Source: a virus
Taxonomy: Duplodnaviria; Caudoviricetes
Virus record (IMG/VR): IMGVR_UViG_3300028790_000006
Span: 1-57,336 of that record
Length of the DNA: 57,336 nucleotides
Strand: one strand, 5' to 3'
Shown here piece by piece: positions 3,125 through 8,125 of the stretch. Numbering within the stretch: position 1 is the stretch's first letter; every line of letters starts with the position of its first letter. A program made the translations under genes and the position numbers. A model generated the notes under the pieces. That model searched no databases. It was not told the DNA's origin and worked only from the letters and a program-made list of their open reading frames with translations.

Positions 3125-3742
3125 ATGAATCCGATTCATGATTCAGAGCATGCGCTCTACCGCTTCTTTGATGATCAAGGGGCGCTGCTTTACATCGGGC
3201 TCACGGTCAACCTGCCGACCCGACTGCGCGACCACCACCACGGGAAGGCCTGGTGGCAGAGCGTCGCCCGCATGACCGTCCAGCGCTACCCGACCAGGGC
3301 CGAGGTCGTCGAGGCCGAGCGGCTGGCCATCATCGCCGAGCGGCCGATCCACAATGTGCAGCACAACCGACCGAAGAAAGGGGCCAACCCCGTGGGCGCC
3401 GCCGAGCAGGAAGATGTGATTTTTAGCAACGAGTTCGTCGGGTCATTCTTCCATTCCGACGTTACTCGCGGATGGCAGGGAAAAGTCATCGAGTCGCTCG
3501 GCGGTGGGTTCTACTTCGTTGTCACGTTCTCATGGATGAGTGGTGACGAGTGGACCCGCCATGTCGTCTCTTTGTCGGAGATGGGGGCGTGGCGGTTCTA
3601 CTCCTCCGATGAGGCCATGATCCGGGCTGCGCCTAGCGTGTCGAAGGTCTGGGAGCGTGAGCGCGGCCAGGTTTCGGACATGACCAACGAGCAGCTGATC
3701 GAAGCGCTCAAGGCTTCCGCCCCGAAGTCGACTGGCCGGTGA
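3125..3742 (+). CDS. GIY-YIG endonuclease
   Basis: ALYRFFDDQGALLYIGLT, conserved R..H, E..AI..E.P..N. Confidence 0.85.
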   Translation: MNPIHDSEHALYRFFDDQGALLYIGLTVNLPTRLRDHHHGKAWWQSVARMTVQRYPTRAEVVEAERLAIIAERPIHNVQHNRPKKGANPVGAAEQEDVIFSNEFVGSFFHSDVTRGWQGKVIESLGGGFYFVVTFSWMSGDEWTRHVVSLSEMGAWRFYSSDEAMIRAAPSVSKVWERERGQVSDMTNEQLIEALKASAPKSTGR

Positions 3743-3994: not shown

Positions 3995-4204
3995 ATGGGA
4001 GACGAGAGCACCGAGCGGCTGTTGCTGGACGCCGAGATGACGCGGGCGCTGTCCGCTCTGGACCTGGCCCGGTACCGGTCGCGCCAGCAGCGGAAGGCCT
4101 TCGGCGGTGTTGATCGCGACGTGGCCCGCCGGCTCGAGGCGGCGCTGCGTCGGGTTTGGTGGCTGGAGTCGCAGGCCGTTGCGGCCGCGCTGGTGGCGGC
4201 GTGA
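3995..4204 (+). CDS. Hypothetical protein, leaderless (MGDESTERLL...)
   Basis: In-frame ATG of ORF 3959..4204 just after a -10 box; stop overlaps the methyltransferase GTG. Confidence 0.7.
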   Translation: MGDESTERLLLDAEMTRALSALDLARYRSRQQRKAFGGVDRDVARRLEAALRRVWWLESQAVAAALVAA

Positions 4205-6081
4205 GCGCCGGGGACGTGCGGGTGGTGCGCTACCACGGCGACGCGCTGGAGGCCCTGAGCGGGCTGGCCGATGACCTGGTCGACGCGATCGTCACCGATC
4301 CGCCCTACGAGCTGGGGTTCATGGGCCACACCTGGGACGCGTCGGGCATCGCGTACAACGTCGAGCTGTGGAAGCACTGCCTGCGCGTGCTCAAGCCTGG
4401 CGGACACCTGTTGGCGTTCGGCGGGACGCGGACGGCGCACCGGATGGCCTGCGCCATCGAGGACGCCGGTTTCGAGATCCGCGACTCGATCGCCTGGCTG
4501 TACGGGTCCGGCTTTCCGAAGTCGCTCGACGTCAGCAAGGCGATCGACAAACGCCGCGACGACGGTTCCGACGTCGCGCGTGTCGCGGCCTGGCTCGCAG
4601 ATCAAGCCGAGGCCGCCGCCGTCACCCGTGCCCATGTTGATGCTCACATGGGCACCTCCGACATGGCCGGCTGGTGGCTGTCCCGATTGCCGCACCGCGC
4701 GCAGGTCCCGCAGTGGGACCAATGGCTGCATCTGCGCGAACTGATCGGATTCAGCGACGAGATGGACATTGAGGTCTGGCGCCTCAATGGACGCAAGGGC
4801 ACGCCAGGTGAGCCATGGGCGAATGCCGAGGTGCTCGCCATAGATGAGCGATGGAACGAACCCGGCGTTGTCAACGCGGGCCAGGGCGATCGTGAGCGCG
4901 TCAGTCGAGCGATCAAGGCCCCCGCGACCGACGACGCGAAGCGCTGGGCGGGGTGGGGCACGGCGCTCAAGCCGGCCCATGAGCCGATCGTCGTTGCCCG
5001 CAAGCCGCTGGTCGGGACGGTGGCCGCGAACGTGCTGGCCCATGGGACCGGGGCACTCAACATCGACGCGTGCCGGGTGGGCGATGCCCCCATCACGCAG
5101 CATGGCCGCTCGGCCGGCCAGAGCGACAGCATGTCGGGGCCAAACTGCGCCGAGCCCGCAGGGCGAGCCTGGGTTGGCCGCTGGCCGGCCAATGTCGCCC
5201 TCGACGAGGTGGCCGCGGCCGAGCTCGACGAGCAGAGCGGGACGTTGAAGTCGGGCGCGAATCCGACCCGGCGCAGCAGTGACAAGTTCCGTGACGCCTA
5301 CGGCGAGTTCGCCGGCCAGGAGGAGTGCACGCCGGCCCGGGGTGCCGACGCCGGCGGGGCGTCGCGGTTCTTCCCGGTGTTCCGGTACCAGGCCAAGGCG
5401 CCCACGCGTGAGCGCCCGGAGTACTGGCGACCTTCGTGCAACTGTGAAACAGTTAAGCCATGGCCGGATCAATCACCGCAAAGGGCTATCGACGCATCAG
5501 AATCGGGCGTAGGCAAGTCATGGAGCACGTCTACGTCTGGGAGCGGGAGCACGGCCGAACAGTTCCCGACGGGCACGACGTCCATCACCGGAATGGCGAC
5601 AAGCTCGACAATGACCCCGGAAATCTTCAACTCGTCACAAAGCTTGAGCACAAGCGCATCCATTCCGGATGCGAACTCCGCGGCGATGTCTGGTGGAAGC
5701 CCTGCGGTGTCTGTCGACGACTCAAGCCGGTCGACGCCGAGTATTGGTATTTCTCGGCCGAAGGATGGCCGCTCTACGGTCGCTGCCGACCCTGCCACAT
5801 TGAGCGAGTGGTCAGAGACAAGCGTCTGCGTAAACTGCGGCGCACCGGCTAGGCGTGAAGCGCATGCGACCGTGAAGCCGCTCGACCTCATGCGCTGGCT
5901 CGTCCGGCTGGCCACGCCGCCCGACGGAATCGTGCTCGACCCGTTCGCGGGCAGCGGCACGACGCTCGAGGCCGCGGTGACCGAGGGCATGCGCTGCATC
6001 GGTATTGAGCAGAGCGCGGACTACCTGCCGCTGATCGATGCCCGGATGACCCGGGCCGGCCTGACGGCGGTGGCGGCGTGA
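4201..6081 (+). CDS. Beta-class N6-A/N4-C DNA methyltransferase with HTH-like and Ser/Thr-rich insertions
   Basis: DPPY near the N-terminus, ALKPAHEPI, HATVKP, C-terminal DPFAGSGTT; GTG start at 4201. Confidence 0.92.
   Translation: MSAGDVRVVRYHGDALEALSGLADDLVDAIVTDPPYELGFMGHTWDASGIAYNVELWKHCLRVLKPGGHLLAFGGTRTAHRMACAIEDAGFEIRDSIAWLYGSGFPKSLDVSKAIDKRRDDGSDVARVAAWLADQAEAAAVTRAHVDAHMGTSDMAGWWLSRLPHRAQVPQWDQWLHLRELIGFSDEMDIEVWRLNGRKGTPGEPWANAEVLAIDERWNEPGVVNAGQGDRERVSRAIKAPATDDAKRWAGWGTALKPAHEPIVVARKPLVGTVAANVLAHGTGALNIDACRVGDAPITQHGRSAGQSDSMSGPNCAEPAGRAWVGRWPANVALDEVAAAELDEQSGTLKSGANPTRRSSDKFRDAYGEFAGQEECTPARGADAGGASRFFPVFRYQAKAPTRERPEYWRPSCNCETVKPWPDQSPQRAIDASESGVGKSWSTSTSGSGSTAEQFPTGTTSITGMATSSTMTPEIFNSSQSLSTSASIPDANSAAMSGGSPAVSVDDSSRSTPSIGISRPKDGRSTVAADPATLSEWSETSVCVNCGAPARREAHATVKPLDLMRWLVRLATPPDGIVLDPFAGSGTTLEAAVTEGMRCIGIEQSADYLPLIDARMTRAGLTAVAA
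5460..5852 (+). CDS. HNH endonuclease overprinted in an alternate frame inside the methyltransferase
   Basis: EHVYVWE..VHHRNGDKLDNDPGNLQLV..EHKRIH plus a C-terminal CxxC..CxxC. Confidence 0.85.
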   Translation: MAGSITAKGYRRIRIGRRQVMEHVYVWEREHGRTVPDGHDVHHRNGDKLDNDPGNLQLVTKLEHKRIHSGCELRGDVWWKPCGVCRRLKPVDAEYWYFSAEGWPLYGRCRPCHIERVVRDKRLRKLRRTG

Positions 6082-6386
6082 AGTCGATTGTCGTGGGCTC
6101 GGGCGGTCTGGGGGTCGTGCAGCTGAGCGTGGCCGACCGGTTCGTCTCGCCGGAGCACGCCCGGATCGTGCGCCACGACGACGGGACGCTCTGGGTGGTG
6201 GACCTCGGGTCGACCAACGGCACCAGGCTGACCCGGGCGGGCCAGTCCGCGTACACGGGTGCAGGGGTGCAGGTTCGCGGCTCAGCGGAGCCCTGGCGGG
6301 CCGGATGGACCCTCTGGTTCGGCGCGCGGGTCGGCCTGACGTTGGACGCGCGGGGCTGGGTCAAGCCGGTCAGGCTCGACCTGTGA
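6078..6386 (+). CDS. FHA domain protein
   Basis: VSPEHARI and VVDLGSTNGT are FHA signature motifs. Confidence 0.85.
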   Translation: MKSIVVGSGGLGVVQLSVADRFVSPEHARIVRHDDGTLWVVDLGSTNGTRLTRAGQSAYTGAGVQVRGSAEPWRAGWTLWFGARVGLTLDARGWVKPVRLDL

Positions 6387-8125
6387 CCGCGCCGATGCTG
6401 GCGCTGCGCCCGTACCAGGCCGAAGGCGTCGAGGCGGTGTTCGGGGCGTGGTCGCGCGGCATGCGCCGGCCCGCCCTGGTCTGGGCCACTGGGCTGGGCA
6501 AGACCGTCGGGTTCGCCGCCATCGGGCGGCGGTTCGTCGCGGAGAACCCGGGCCGGCGGGTGCTGGCCATCGCGCACACCACCGAGCTGGTCGACCAGAT
6601 GATGCGCAAGTTCCGCGACGCCGCGCCGGACCTGCGGGTGGGCCGCGTCCAGGGCAACGCCAACGAGACCCTGGCCCAGATCGTCTGCGCGTCGGTGCAG
6701 ACCCTGCGCGGGGAGAACCGCCGGCGCATGATCCGCGACGTTGGGTTAGTAATTGTTGACGAATGTCACCATAGCGTTGCATCTACCTATATGTCCATAT
6801 TGACGCACTACGGGGCGTTGGGGCCGATCCGCCCGGACAGCGCGGTGGCCCTGGGGCTCACCGCCACCATGATGCGCGGCGACGAGCTGGCCCTGGGCGA
6901 GGTCTGGCAGAACGTCGTGCACACCCGCACCATCGCCGAGGGCATCGCCGACGGGTACCTGGTGCGGCCGCGGGGCCTGCACGTCCAGGTCGACGACTTG
7001 GACCTGACCCGCGTGCGGACGTCCGGCGGGGACTACCGCGAAGGCGACCTGGGGCAGGCCATCGAGGACTCGCTGGCGCCTGAGGCCATCGCGAAGGCGG
7101 TCGCCGAGCACGCGCACGATCGCAAGATCCTGCTGTTCGCCCCGACGGTCTCCAGCGCTGAGGTGATCGGCGACGCCCTGAGAGCGTCTGGGCGGACCGT
7201 GGGGCTCATCCACGGGGGATTGGGCGCCGGGCCGCGAAAGGCCGTCCTGGACGCGTACAGGGCTGGGGAAACGCAGATTCTGACGAACTGCATGGTGCTC
7301 ACGGAAGGCTTCGACCATCCGGCCGCGGACTGCGCGGTGATCGCGCGGCCCACCCGGTCGCGTGGGCTCTACATCCAGATCGCCGGCCGGGTGCTGCGCC
7401 CGTGGCCCGGTAAGACCGACGCGCTGCTGCTCGACGTGGTGGGCGCGACCACCCAGCATTCCCTGATTTCGGGCATCACGCTCTTCGGGGACAAGCCGGA
7501 GCGGGCGGACGACGACGAGCGTGGCGATGACGACTTGCGGGACGAGTCGGACATTGGCCTGGAAGATCCAGAAGAATTGGCCCCTGGCCAGCAGGACGCG
7601 CGCCAGGCGCTCGGGCTGCGCGACGGGGCGCTGGTCACCACGGAGGTTGACCTCTTCGCCGGGTCGTCGATGGCGTGGCTGCGGACCCGCGCCGGCGTGT
7701 TCTTCATCGAGGCCGGCGAGCGGTACATCATGATCGTGCCCGGAGCGCCGAAGCGGGCGGCCGACTGGCTGACGCATTTTGGTTTGTCGCAAAACAGTCG
7801 CGGTGAGCGCGCGTTCTGCGGCTACGACGTGGTGGCGGTGTCGAAAAAGGGCCCGCTGGTCCGCCAGGAGATCGTGGCCGGCGTCGAGGATCTGGCGTAC
7901 GCCATGGCCTGGGCTGAGGGTGCGGTCACGCCGGTCGAGAAGATGACGGCGACCCGGGAGCGTTCGTGGCGGGCCAAGCCGCCCAGCGCCGCCCTGTCCG
8001 CCCTGGCCGAACGGCTGCGCGTCTTCGTGCCGCCCGGGGCGCGCTCGGGCGAGGTCTCCAACATGGTGTCCCTGGTGCTGGCCAGCAAGCGCATTGACCC
8101 GCTGCTCGGCGCGTGGACACGCTGA
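6383..8125 (+). CDS. SF2 DExH helicase
   Basis: LRPYQ, ATGLGKT, DECH, TAT, LTEGFD, QIAGRVLR; GTGA start overlap. Confidence 0.93.
   Translation: MTAPMLALRPYQAEGVEAVFGAWSRGMRRPALVWATGLGKTVGFAAIGRRFVAENPGRRVLAIAHTTELVDQMMRKFRDAAPDLRVGRVQGNANETLAQIVCASVQTLRGENRRRMIRDVGLVIVDECHHSVASTYMSILTHYGALGPIRPDSAVALGLTATMMRGDELALGEVWQNVVHTRTIAEGIADGYLVRPRGLHVQVDDLDLTRVRTSGGDYREGDLGQAIEDSLAPEAIAKAVAEHAHDRKILLFAPTVSSAEVIGDALRASGRTVGLIHGGLGAGPRKAVLDAYRAGETQILTNCMVLTEGFDHPAADCAVIARPTRSRGLYIQIAGRVLRPWPGKTDALLLDVVGATTQHSLISGITLFGDKPERADDDERGDDDLRDESDIGLEDPEELAPGQQDARQALGLRDGALVTTEVDLFAGSSMAWLRTRAGVFFIEAGERYIMIVPGAPKRAADWLTHFGLSQNSRGERAFCGYDVVAVSKKGPLVRQEIVAGVEDLAYAMAWAEGAVTPVEKMTATRERSWRAKPPSAALSALAERLRVFVPPGARSGEVSNMVSLVLASKRIDPLLGAWTR

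Follow-up and report, generated by a model that had tools for sequence, protein, structure and literature searches.

In a stretch of 57,336 nucleotides (nt) from a virus of the Caudoviricetes (Duplodnaviria; IMG/VR record IMGVR_UViG_3300028790_000006, positions 1 to 57,336; hereafter the window), the gene of a DNA methyltransferase contains an insert that carries a complete HNH endonuclease gene in a different reading frame, and the methyltransferase frame (the host frame) runs through this insert without a stop codon. The common view is that a homing endonuclease gene requires an intron or an intein if the gene it invades is to survive. The insert described here is probably a homing element that does without splicing, its HNH gene being overprinted on a stretch of the methyltransferase that the host would translate straight through. 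This reading is the best supported one because stop codons are depleted from the host frame across the family, no intron or intein signature was found in Rfam and Pfam searches, and the inserted stretch is predicted to form a disordered loop. A splicing-free strategy had been put forward in an initial annotation made from the letters of the window alone, and the present analysis favours it. The annotation had treated the arrangement as new; the layout was published in 2025, in a paper on the ShiLan domain of mycobacteriophage DNA methylases (PMC11855218).

Structure of the insert and of the nested HNH gene

The methyltransferase was identified by its match to the Pfam family N6_N4_Mtase (PF01555, E value 1.5e-30, 107.3 bits). 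Its open reading frame (ORF) is free of stops, as first annotated, and encodes 641 residues from a TTG codon, while the public gene call (P0001) has 626 residues. The motif TDPPYEL was read near the N-terminus of the translation and DPFAGSGTT near the C-terminus, giving the order of the beta class, with DPPY first and the FxGxG S-adenosylmethionine (SAM) motif last. The limits of the insert were set by hidden Markov models (HMMs) from the methyltransferase alignment, the N-terminal part ending at 5418 (RERP) and the C-terminal part beginning at 5863 (HATVKP). Alignment with insert-free homologues, suggested along with the initial annotation, gave 12 empty sites with 6-11 residues at the place where the window has 148 codons, a length that replaces the approximately 125 residues given at first. 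The guanine plus cytosine (GC) content falls from 0.72-0.73 outside to 0.57-0.63 over positions 5400-5850. In the host frame the insert reads EYWRPSCNCETVKPW, followed by a Ser/Thr-rich stretch and by SETSVCVNCGAPARRE, with cysteines at residues 428, 430, 558 and 561; the bracketing of a Ser/Thr-rich stretch by cysteine pairs, ahead of HATVKP and the SAM motif, was thus recovered as originally described. The features are collected in Table 1.

Table 1. Features of the methyltransferase gene and of its insert (coordinates in the window)
Feature	Position	Strand	Basis
DNA methyltransferase ORF, uninterrupted, its frame read through the insert	4156..6081	+	Pfam, ORF scan, translation
Inserted element, 444 nt = 148 host-frame codons, GC about 0.6 vs 0.72, between RERP and HATVKP	5419..5862	+	HMM parts, GC profile, alignment
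Host-frame CxC (C428, C430), 15-23 nt upstream of the HNH ATG and outside the HNH ORF; 5' half of the proposed clasp	5437..5445	+	alignment, codons
Ser/Thr-rich predicted read-through loop, host-frame residues 433-549, pLDDT about 31	5452..5800	+	AlphaFold2
HNH_3 homing-type endonuclease ORF, 130 residues, -1 frame of the methyltransferase	5460..5852	+	ORF scan, Pfam, alignment
Host-frame CxxC (C558, C561), overlapping the HNH tail LRKLR; 3' half of the proposed clasp	5827..5838	+	alignment, codons
Methyltransferase C-terminal part, HATVKP...DPFAGSGTT, in frame with the N-terminal part	5863..6078	+	translation, HMM parts

The HNH ORF starts with ATG, ends with TAG and matches the Pfam family HNH_3 (PF13392) with an E value of 4.4e-17 (61.9 bits, cut-off 24.8); the phage matches of the window HNH to HNH_3 are annotated as homing endonucleases. 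Its offset from the methyltransferase start, (5460-4156) mod 3 = 2, places the HNH codons one base ahead of the methyltransferase codons, which is the -1 frame, and the ORF leaves 41 nt of the insert on its 5' side and 10 nt on its 3' side. The HNH core is succeeded by a C-terminal Cys-rich module (CxxC...CxxC). The complete 130-residue ORF in the -1 frame stands as initially reported, and the Cys-rich module is the part of it that was named a Zn ribbon there.

A search for relatives returned 239 proteins at E<=1e-3 among 242 candidates, the best 120 listed being 57-90% identical to the window HNH. An alignment of 33 HNH sequences has 31 invariant columns, among them H42, H43, N51, N55, H64 and H68, and the window HNH retains all 31. 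The HNH is under purifying selection, as judged by these 239 relatives and by the invariant columns kept in the window. A search of solved-structure sequences with the HNH returned chance-level matches only (E 0.48-0.75, flavivirus prM) and no usable structural relative. Just upstream of the HNH ATG, a palindrome (AACTGT-GAA-ACAGTT) occupies positions 5440-5454, encodes NCETV in the host frame and is nearly conserved in L005, L008 and L013, three elements that carry the cysteine pairs described below; it may in addition form a hairpin in the RNA or serve as a site for a protein.

The host frame across the HNH family

The DNA of the window, with 70% GC, has long ORFs in all six frames, so the open host frame alone means little. 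The family was sampled on the HNH only, 80 loci on viral contigs and 43 on genome contigs being fetched with the 33-sequence alignment, and tblastn gave 122 hits with at least 90 aligned query residues, the window included. Shorter tblastn hits (secondary ShiLan-type ones and the partial L081 and L127) and loci L001-L004 were set aside before the counts. Methyltransferase HMM parts flank the HNH in 85 of the 122 loci: both parts in 58, the C-terminal part only in 26 (with divergent N-termini or locus edges) and the N-terminal part only in 1. Neither part was found in the other 37, which were classed as free-standing and are mostly from Planctomycetota, L024 belonging to this class only because its locus ends at the HNH. 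Where both parts are present, the N-terminal part always (58/58) reads in frame +1 with respect to the HNH, and in 54 of these loci the C-terminal part shares its frame.

After dereplication at 90% nucleotide identity, 63 nested elements and 21 free-standing ones remained. Of the nested elements, 62 of 63 have an open host frame over the HNH and 2 an open third frame; in the free-standing copies the +1 frame is open in 2 of 21. Calculated from the codon usage in the flanks of each locus, the chance probability of an open frame has a median of 0.0068 (n=62, maximum 0.35), and many hosts have a GC content of 32-45%, where P<=0.001. From 50 codons upstream to 20 codons into the C-terminal part, the host frame is unbroken in 57 of the 63. 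Furthermore, 53 of the best 120 listed methyltransferase matches, the window's own included, cover at least 92% of residues 400-641, which means that gene callers also went straight across this insert in about 50 other protein clusters. These sequence comparisons give good support to selection for a host reading that is open and in frame, and chance is excluded on account of the family-level counts and not of the window alone. Stops in homologues, which had been named at the outset as a possible objection to read-through, do not refute it with the frame open in 62 of 63.

The window itself carries one concrete signal: in its HNH, the four Leu/Val codons preceding an A-starting codon all use NTC, whereas NTG makes up about half of the Leu/Val codons in the flanks, and the only two CTG Leu codons are those that create host-frame Cys codons.

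The open frame might instead be a by-product of high GC content, the methyltransferase being inactivated or dispensable and the element an ordinary gene-disrupting endonuclease insertion. The window taken by itself would allow this, with a probability of an open frame of about 0.1 and long ORFs in all frames of its DNA; 6 of the 63 nested relatives are broken, and the methylase is described as non-essential in related phages by Arsenault et al. (PMC11855218). Against it, the depletion of stops in the family extends to low-GC hosts (GC 0.32-0.45, P<=0.001 in many), the C-terminal part is in frame in the 54 of 58 loci given above, the methyltransferase motifs downstream of the insert are conserved and shortened inserts remain in frame. 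We consider this explanation very improbable, if slightly less so than the others discussed below.

Two further arrangements were observed in the family. L085, L120 and L022 carry two separate hidden HNH genes at two sites inside single long methyltransferase ORFs of 578-931 residues (L085, 1033-1284 and 1981-2337; L120, 1126-1314 and 2236-2610; L022, 531-701 and 1099-1455), both genes being in the +1-frame relation in L085 and L120. In L023 (about 3413), L025 (about 2837) and L067 (about 3398) a stop stands at the 3' junction, the host frame reading HPT-stop-TVKP or HPT-stop-IVKP, and the methyltransferase appears split rather than read through.

Rival readings: an intron or an intein

Phage group I introns commonly carry HNH ORFs. 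The insert might be an unrecognised self-splicing intron, or be removed at the RNA level in some other way, the open host frame being incidental; HNH ORFs in such introns are also discussed in PMC11855218, where a resemblance like that between the first host-frame insert residues (ETVKP) and the residues after the site (ATVKP) is called intron-like for ShiLan. An Rfam search over 4000-7000 gave no match at E<=1, a result that a divergent ribozyme core could escape if it stood alone, but the 41 nt before and 10 nt after the HNH ORF also leave little room for such a core. Moreover, neither an open frame nor divisibility of its length by three is required of an intron, and still the frame is open in 62 of 63 nested elements, where the median expectation is 0.007. 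RNA contigs of soil metatranscriptomes agree with the window without mismatches, both within the insert (5506-5656) and over its 5' junction (5343-5493). Joints lacking the insert were not seen in four runs, at a depth of about 2 and over the covered parts only, and DNA carry-over is possible in RNA libraries; these contigs are at most a weak hint of unspliced RNA. An intron is on the whole very unlikely. DNA runs sharing about 0.68 of the window's words were also suspected of carrying an empty allele; run X7 had only patchy cover and no joint.

A length of 148 residues lies within the range of mini-inteins, and the insert might be a degenerate or atypical intein removed by protein splicing. 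The window insert begins near a Cys and ends with VN/C. In addition, genuine inteins occupy the same site in ParB_N-methyltransferase ORFs of betaproteobacterial type (L028, L035, L087 and others), ending in SHN/TMKP, and each of those three encodes a relative of the window HNH out of frame. The Intein_splicing score is 41.3 bits in L035 (cut-off 35.8), and the matches of L028 (E 2.6e-5) and L087 (E 4.3e-6) are both below the cut-off. The host-frame insert of the window, however, matches no Pfam family at E<=1, neither Hint nor Intein_splicing, and its Ser/Thr-rich sequence, predicted at low confidence (pLDDT about 31; see below), is no Hint fold. No conserved Asn precedes the last Cys, the residue at that place being N, S, A, E, V, R, K or another, and remnants of 32-94 residues, unable to splice, are kept in frame. 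Removal as an intein seems to us just as unlikely as removal as an intron, and the absence of intein termini and of a group I intron core reported at first agrees with the Rfam and Pfam searches.

The intein-bearing ORFs lie at 1679-3751 in L028, 1580-3688 in L035 and 1676-3733 in L087, and others occur in L029, L037, L088, L089 and L094, with the insertion site HxT/xKP.

Cysteine pairs and the predicted loop

The structure of the methyltransferase was predicted with AlphaFold2 from a 65-sequence alignment. The core has a predicted local distance difference test (pLDDT) score mostly above 90, while residues 433-549 (about 117) score below 50, in blocks at 28-44. The Cys-bearing ends of the insert score 79 (residues 421-430) and 81-83 (residues 551-570) and contain short strands.

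In the same alignment, 48 rows have a full insert of 142-168 residues between ERP and HxTVKP, with both Cys pairs in 47 of them. Five rows have shortened inserts (94, 87, 54, 32 and 32 residues), in which the HNH is largely or wholly lost and both Cys pairs are present in all five. The 12 rows with empty sites (6-11 residues) have no Cys at all. In the 3' pair the Cys codons are TGY throughout, whereas the HNH residues encoded by the same DNA change (L/V/M, then R/Q/P/L/S), and in L006 and L085 the HNH stop falls before the second Cys codon of the 3' pair. Of the nested elements, 59 were classified: both pairs occur in 11, the 5' pair alone in 3, the 3' pair alone in none and neither pair in 39, the remaining 6 being of the intein type. 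Since the 5' and 3' pairs co-occur, they appear to behave as one host-frame unit, confined to one subfamily, with counts inflated by relatedness.

The closest backbones of the window methyltransferase have empty sites (KVDGVA, no Cys), and CxC and CxxC travel with the insert and are not native to this methyltransferase. The initial placing of the HNH gene in a tolerated loop of a Zn ribbon is accordingly borne out for the loop, as predicted by AlphaFold2, but not for a ribbon belonging to the methyltransferase. The two pairs could well form a zinc knuckle tying the ends of the loop together, a prediction from sequence that we hold at somewhat less than even confidence. They are also compatible with a native knuckle of some ancestral methyltransferase, now co-converting with the HNH.

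P0051 and P0052 have a segment of 32 residues between ERP and HxTVKP (CDC, 13 residues, CETCG), which may be the smallest scar left by the element or else the knuckle in its ancestral form. P0025, a methyltransferase of 647 residues from Mycobacteroides chelonae, has an N-terminal LAGLIDADG-type insertion (PF00961) together with a window-type insert with both Cys pairs, and thus contains two selfish insertions, one of the LAGLIDADG type and one of the read-through type.

Mobility, distribution and other vehicles

The flanks of the insert are closest to methyltransferases with empty sites (P0068, 73.6% identity; P0055, 71.9%; P0053, 71.5%), whereas the most similar inserts (63%) sit in methyltransferases with flanks only 52-56% identical. 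The distributions of insert and host are discordant by these comparisons, as expected of a homing element, and most members of the methyltransferase family are without the HNH. The series from full through shortened to empty sites fits a homing cycle in which invasion would be followed by decay and loss. A search at the insert ends (5419/5862) found no terminal inverted or direct repeats and no target-site duplication. Terminal inverted repeats and a target-site duplication are expected of transposon-like small mobile elements such as the mycobacteriophage MPME, and the element is therefore not transposon-like.

The HNH clade was found in contigs assigned to Pseudomonadota, Actinomycetota, Bacillota, Planctomycetota, Bacteroidota and Cloacimonadota. 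In an HNH tree made with a quick method (83 rows, 127 columns), the free-standing Planctomycetota copies form one clade (17 rows, support 98) and the intein rows two (support 99 and 100); the tree is too poorly resolved to order the free-standing, intein and read-through states or to count the origins of the clasp and of nesting.

A nested restriction-modification pair, offered as an alternative in the initial annotation, or another cooperative (domesticated) unit is not supported and is the least probable of the explanations, for although the HNH is physically nested in the methyltransferase and some restriction enzymes contain HNH nucleases, the HNH clade is also free-standing (37/122 loci) and present in inteins, the nearest methyltransferase backbones of the window and most of the host family are without it, the distributions are discordant, the HNH_3 match and its phage counterparts are of the homing type, and in the decay remnants the HNH is lost while the methyltransferase persists.

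A model of homing without splicing

The observations above are consistent with the following course of events. A homing-type mobile element with an HNH gene in the -1 frame would invade the phage DNA methyltransferase, its host-frame stretch being kept free of stops and a multiple of three in length. The element would be removed neither from the RNA nor from the protein, and we infer that the methyltransferase is translated straight through, yielding a disordered loop of about 117 residues just before the conserved HxTVKP/SAM-binding part. The Cys pairs at the loop ends may form a small zinc knuckle that holds them together so that the host fold closes. The HNH would be made separately from its own ATG at 5460 and, during co-infection, would cut empty methyltransferase alleles at the conserved ERP...HxTVKP site, whereupon repair would copy the element into the cut allele. 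We tentatively suggest, with less confidence than for the reading as a whole, that the element brings its own protein-level substitute for splicing, a CxC...CxxC knuckle that staples the loop and may stay behind as a 32-residue scar after decay of the endonuclease.

Several observations weigh against this model. For the window by itself, the probability of an open host frame is 0.096 if the HNH protein is encoded with flank codon usage, which is not significant, and 0.55 under within-ORF synonymous permutation of the HNH codons. No Shine-Dalgarno tetramer lies within 20 nt before the ATG at 5460, and in the family such a tetramer, in some cases the canonical AGGAGG, precedes the HNH start in 18 of 63 nested elements against 19 of 21 free-standing ones. 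A scan of 5100-6200 gave no sigma-70-like promoter and no terminator, the missing promoter being the point that counts here. Read-through is not always kept, the C-terminal part being frameshifted in 4 of the 63 nested elements and a stop standing exactly at the 3' junction in 2. The low pLDDT of the loop is no proof of disorder. With 39 of the 59 classified nested elements carrying no Cys pairs, the clasp is not required for the strategy. Finally, Ser/Thr richness as a selected property of the loop was rejected, since it is equally enriched in the +1 frame of free-standing HNH genes: the median z values against a composition model, for Ser plus Thr enrichment and for hydrophobic depletion, are 1.82 and -1.22 in free-standing (n=20) and 1.50 and -0.81 in nested elements (n=55). 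The Ser/Thr richness is a by-product of HNH coding.

The clasp, the decay series from 148 through 32 to 6 residues and the intein relatives at the same site provide a system for studying how proteins tolerate large insertions, and the same system suits the question of how selfish elements change vehicle. If the HNH clade does move among free-standing, intein-borne and read-through forms at one site, it would show that these vehicles interconvert; if the knuckle does act as a substitute for splicing, homing elements would be a source of new metal-binding motifs in host proteins. Gene calling reports a methylase of this kind as a single long ORF and overlooks the nuclease.

Genomic setting

The methyltransferase gene is surrounded by genes for a GIY-YIG protein, an FHA protein, a ResIII/DEAD helicase and RusA, and its best DNA matches are phages of Mycobacterium and Arthrobacter. 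The window sequence was found in soil metagenome runs, the 24 listed runs being all soil or sediment metagenomes, and two of them may be where the window comes from. The region looks like the replication module of an uncultured actinophage-like virus. An ORF of 205 residues (3125-3742, + strand), about 400 nt upstream of the methyltransferase gene, contains a GIY-YIG nuclease domain (2.7e-05) and may encode a second homing-type nuclease or a repair nuclease. Within the 72%-GC helicase gene (ORF 6305-8125), a patch of about 64 nt (6740-6803) has a GC content of about 39% and spans the DEAH box (VGLVIVDECHHSVASTYMSILT). The patch has the look of a tract that was recoded or co-converted; an earlier homing or intein event may have left it, or it may reflect immunity of the site.

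Comparison with known systems

Phage HNH homing endonucleases of the I-HmuI type likewise have an HNH core and presumably home at conserved phage gene sites, but they lie between genes or in introns and are not overprinted on a translated host frame. Rickettsia palindromic elements are in-frame selfish DNA tolerated as an extra translated peptide; they encode no protein of their own and involve no dual coding.

Inteins with out-of-frame homing endonucleases have been described from actinophages (EndoVII-like; bioRxiv 10.1101/2025.01.02.630785) and from cyanobacterial dnaX (bioRxiv 10.64898/2026.09.14.751524). As in the window, an endonuclease ORF is superimposed there on host-frame codons that have to remain free of stops; their stretch leaves by protein splicing, however, whereas the window insert has no Hint domain. 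Also similar in layout is the insertion in Pacc40 gp60 (PMC11855218, section 3.6), where a phage methylase also reads through an insert with an out-of-frame nuclease-like ORF, of 160 residues, whose HNH assignment the authors call less certain. By its description there, that methylase belongs to another family, being a helicase-methylase fusion, and the site is different.

The nearest published system is the ShiLan domain of mycobacteriophage DNA methylases, where an inserted HNH gene likewise lies hidden out of frame (Gosselin et al. 2023, PMC9957025; Arsenault, Gosselin and Gogarten 2025, PMC11855218). According to these papers, the ShiLan insert has 202 residues, is stop-free in the host frame and hides an HNH of 195 residues in a third frame; it has no intron or intein signature and is predicted to form a loop (the last two points in PMC11855218). 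We confirmed the element in Bipolar, MISSy and Pollywog, at ALKPxxEP/IVVARKP and 99.3% identical to ShiLan gp65. The window element resembles it in belonging to the same methyltransferase family (PopTart gp63 = P0082, a homologue of the window methyltransferase), in having the same HNH frame offset as in those three phages, and in its stop-free host frame, lack of an intron or intein signature, predicted loop and disjunct distribution.

The two differ in several respects. The site is ERP/HxTVKP in the window and ALKPxxEP/IVVARKP in ShiLan; the window HNH has 130 residues against 184-195, with 43% identity over 66 residues only (HNH residues 5-70); and the window subfamily has Cys pairs at the insert ends. 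Neither the ERP/HxTVKP site nor the cysteine pairs are mentioned in the accessible text of PMC11855218 and PMC9957025, although the supplements or the authors' repository might list the site. That text of PMC11855218 also gives no statistical test of frame openness, for which the family test was made here. The family thereby adds quantitative support for a third route next to introns and inteins, which had been described only in qualitative terms in 2025 and in which the element is dual-coding and would be translated straight through. Reports of ShiLan are confined to Mycobacterium phages, and its authors suggest that leaderless translation in Mycobacterium permits the route (PMC11855218); the window HNH clade spans several phyla, and a route common outside mycobacteriophages weakens this idea. 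Judged from these sequence comparisons, the window element is not the ShiLan domain proper but a relative in layout, known since 2025, with a new site, a separate HNH clade, a cysteine clasp and a wide host range.

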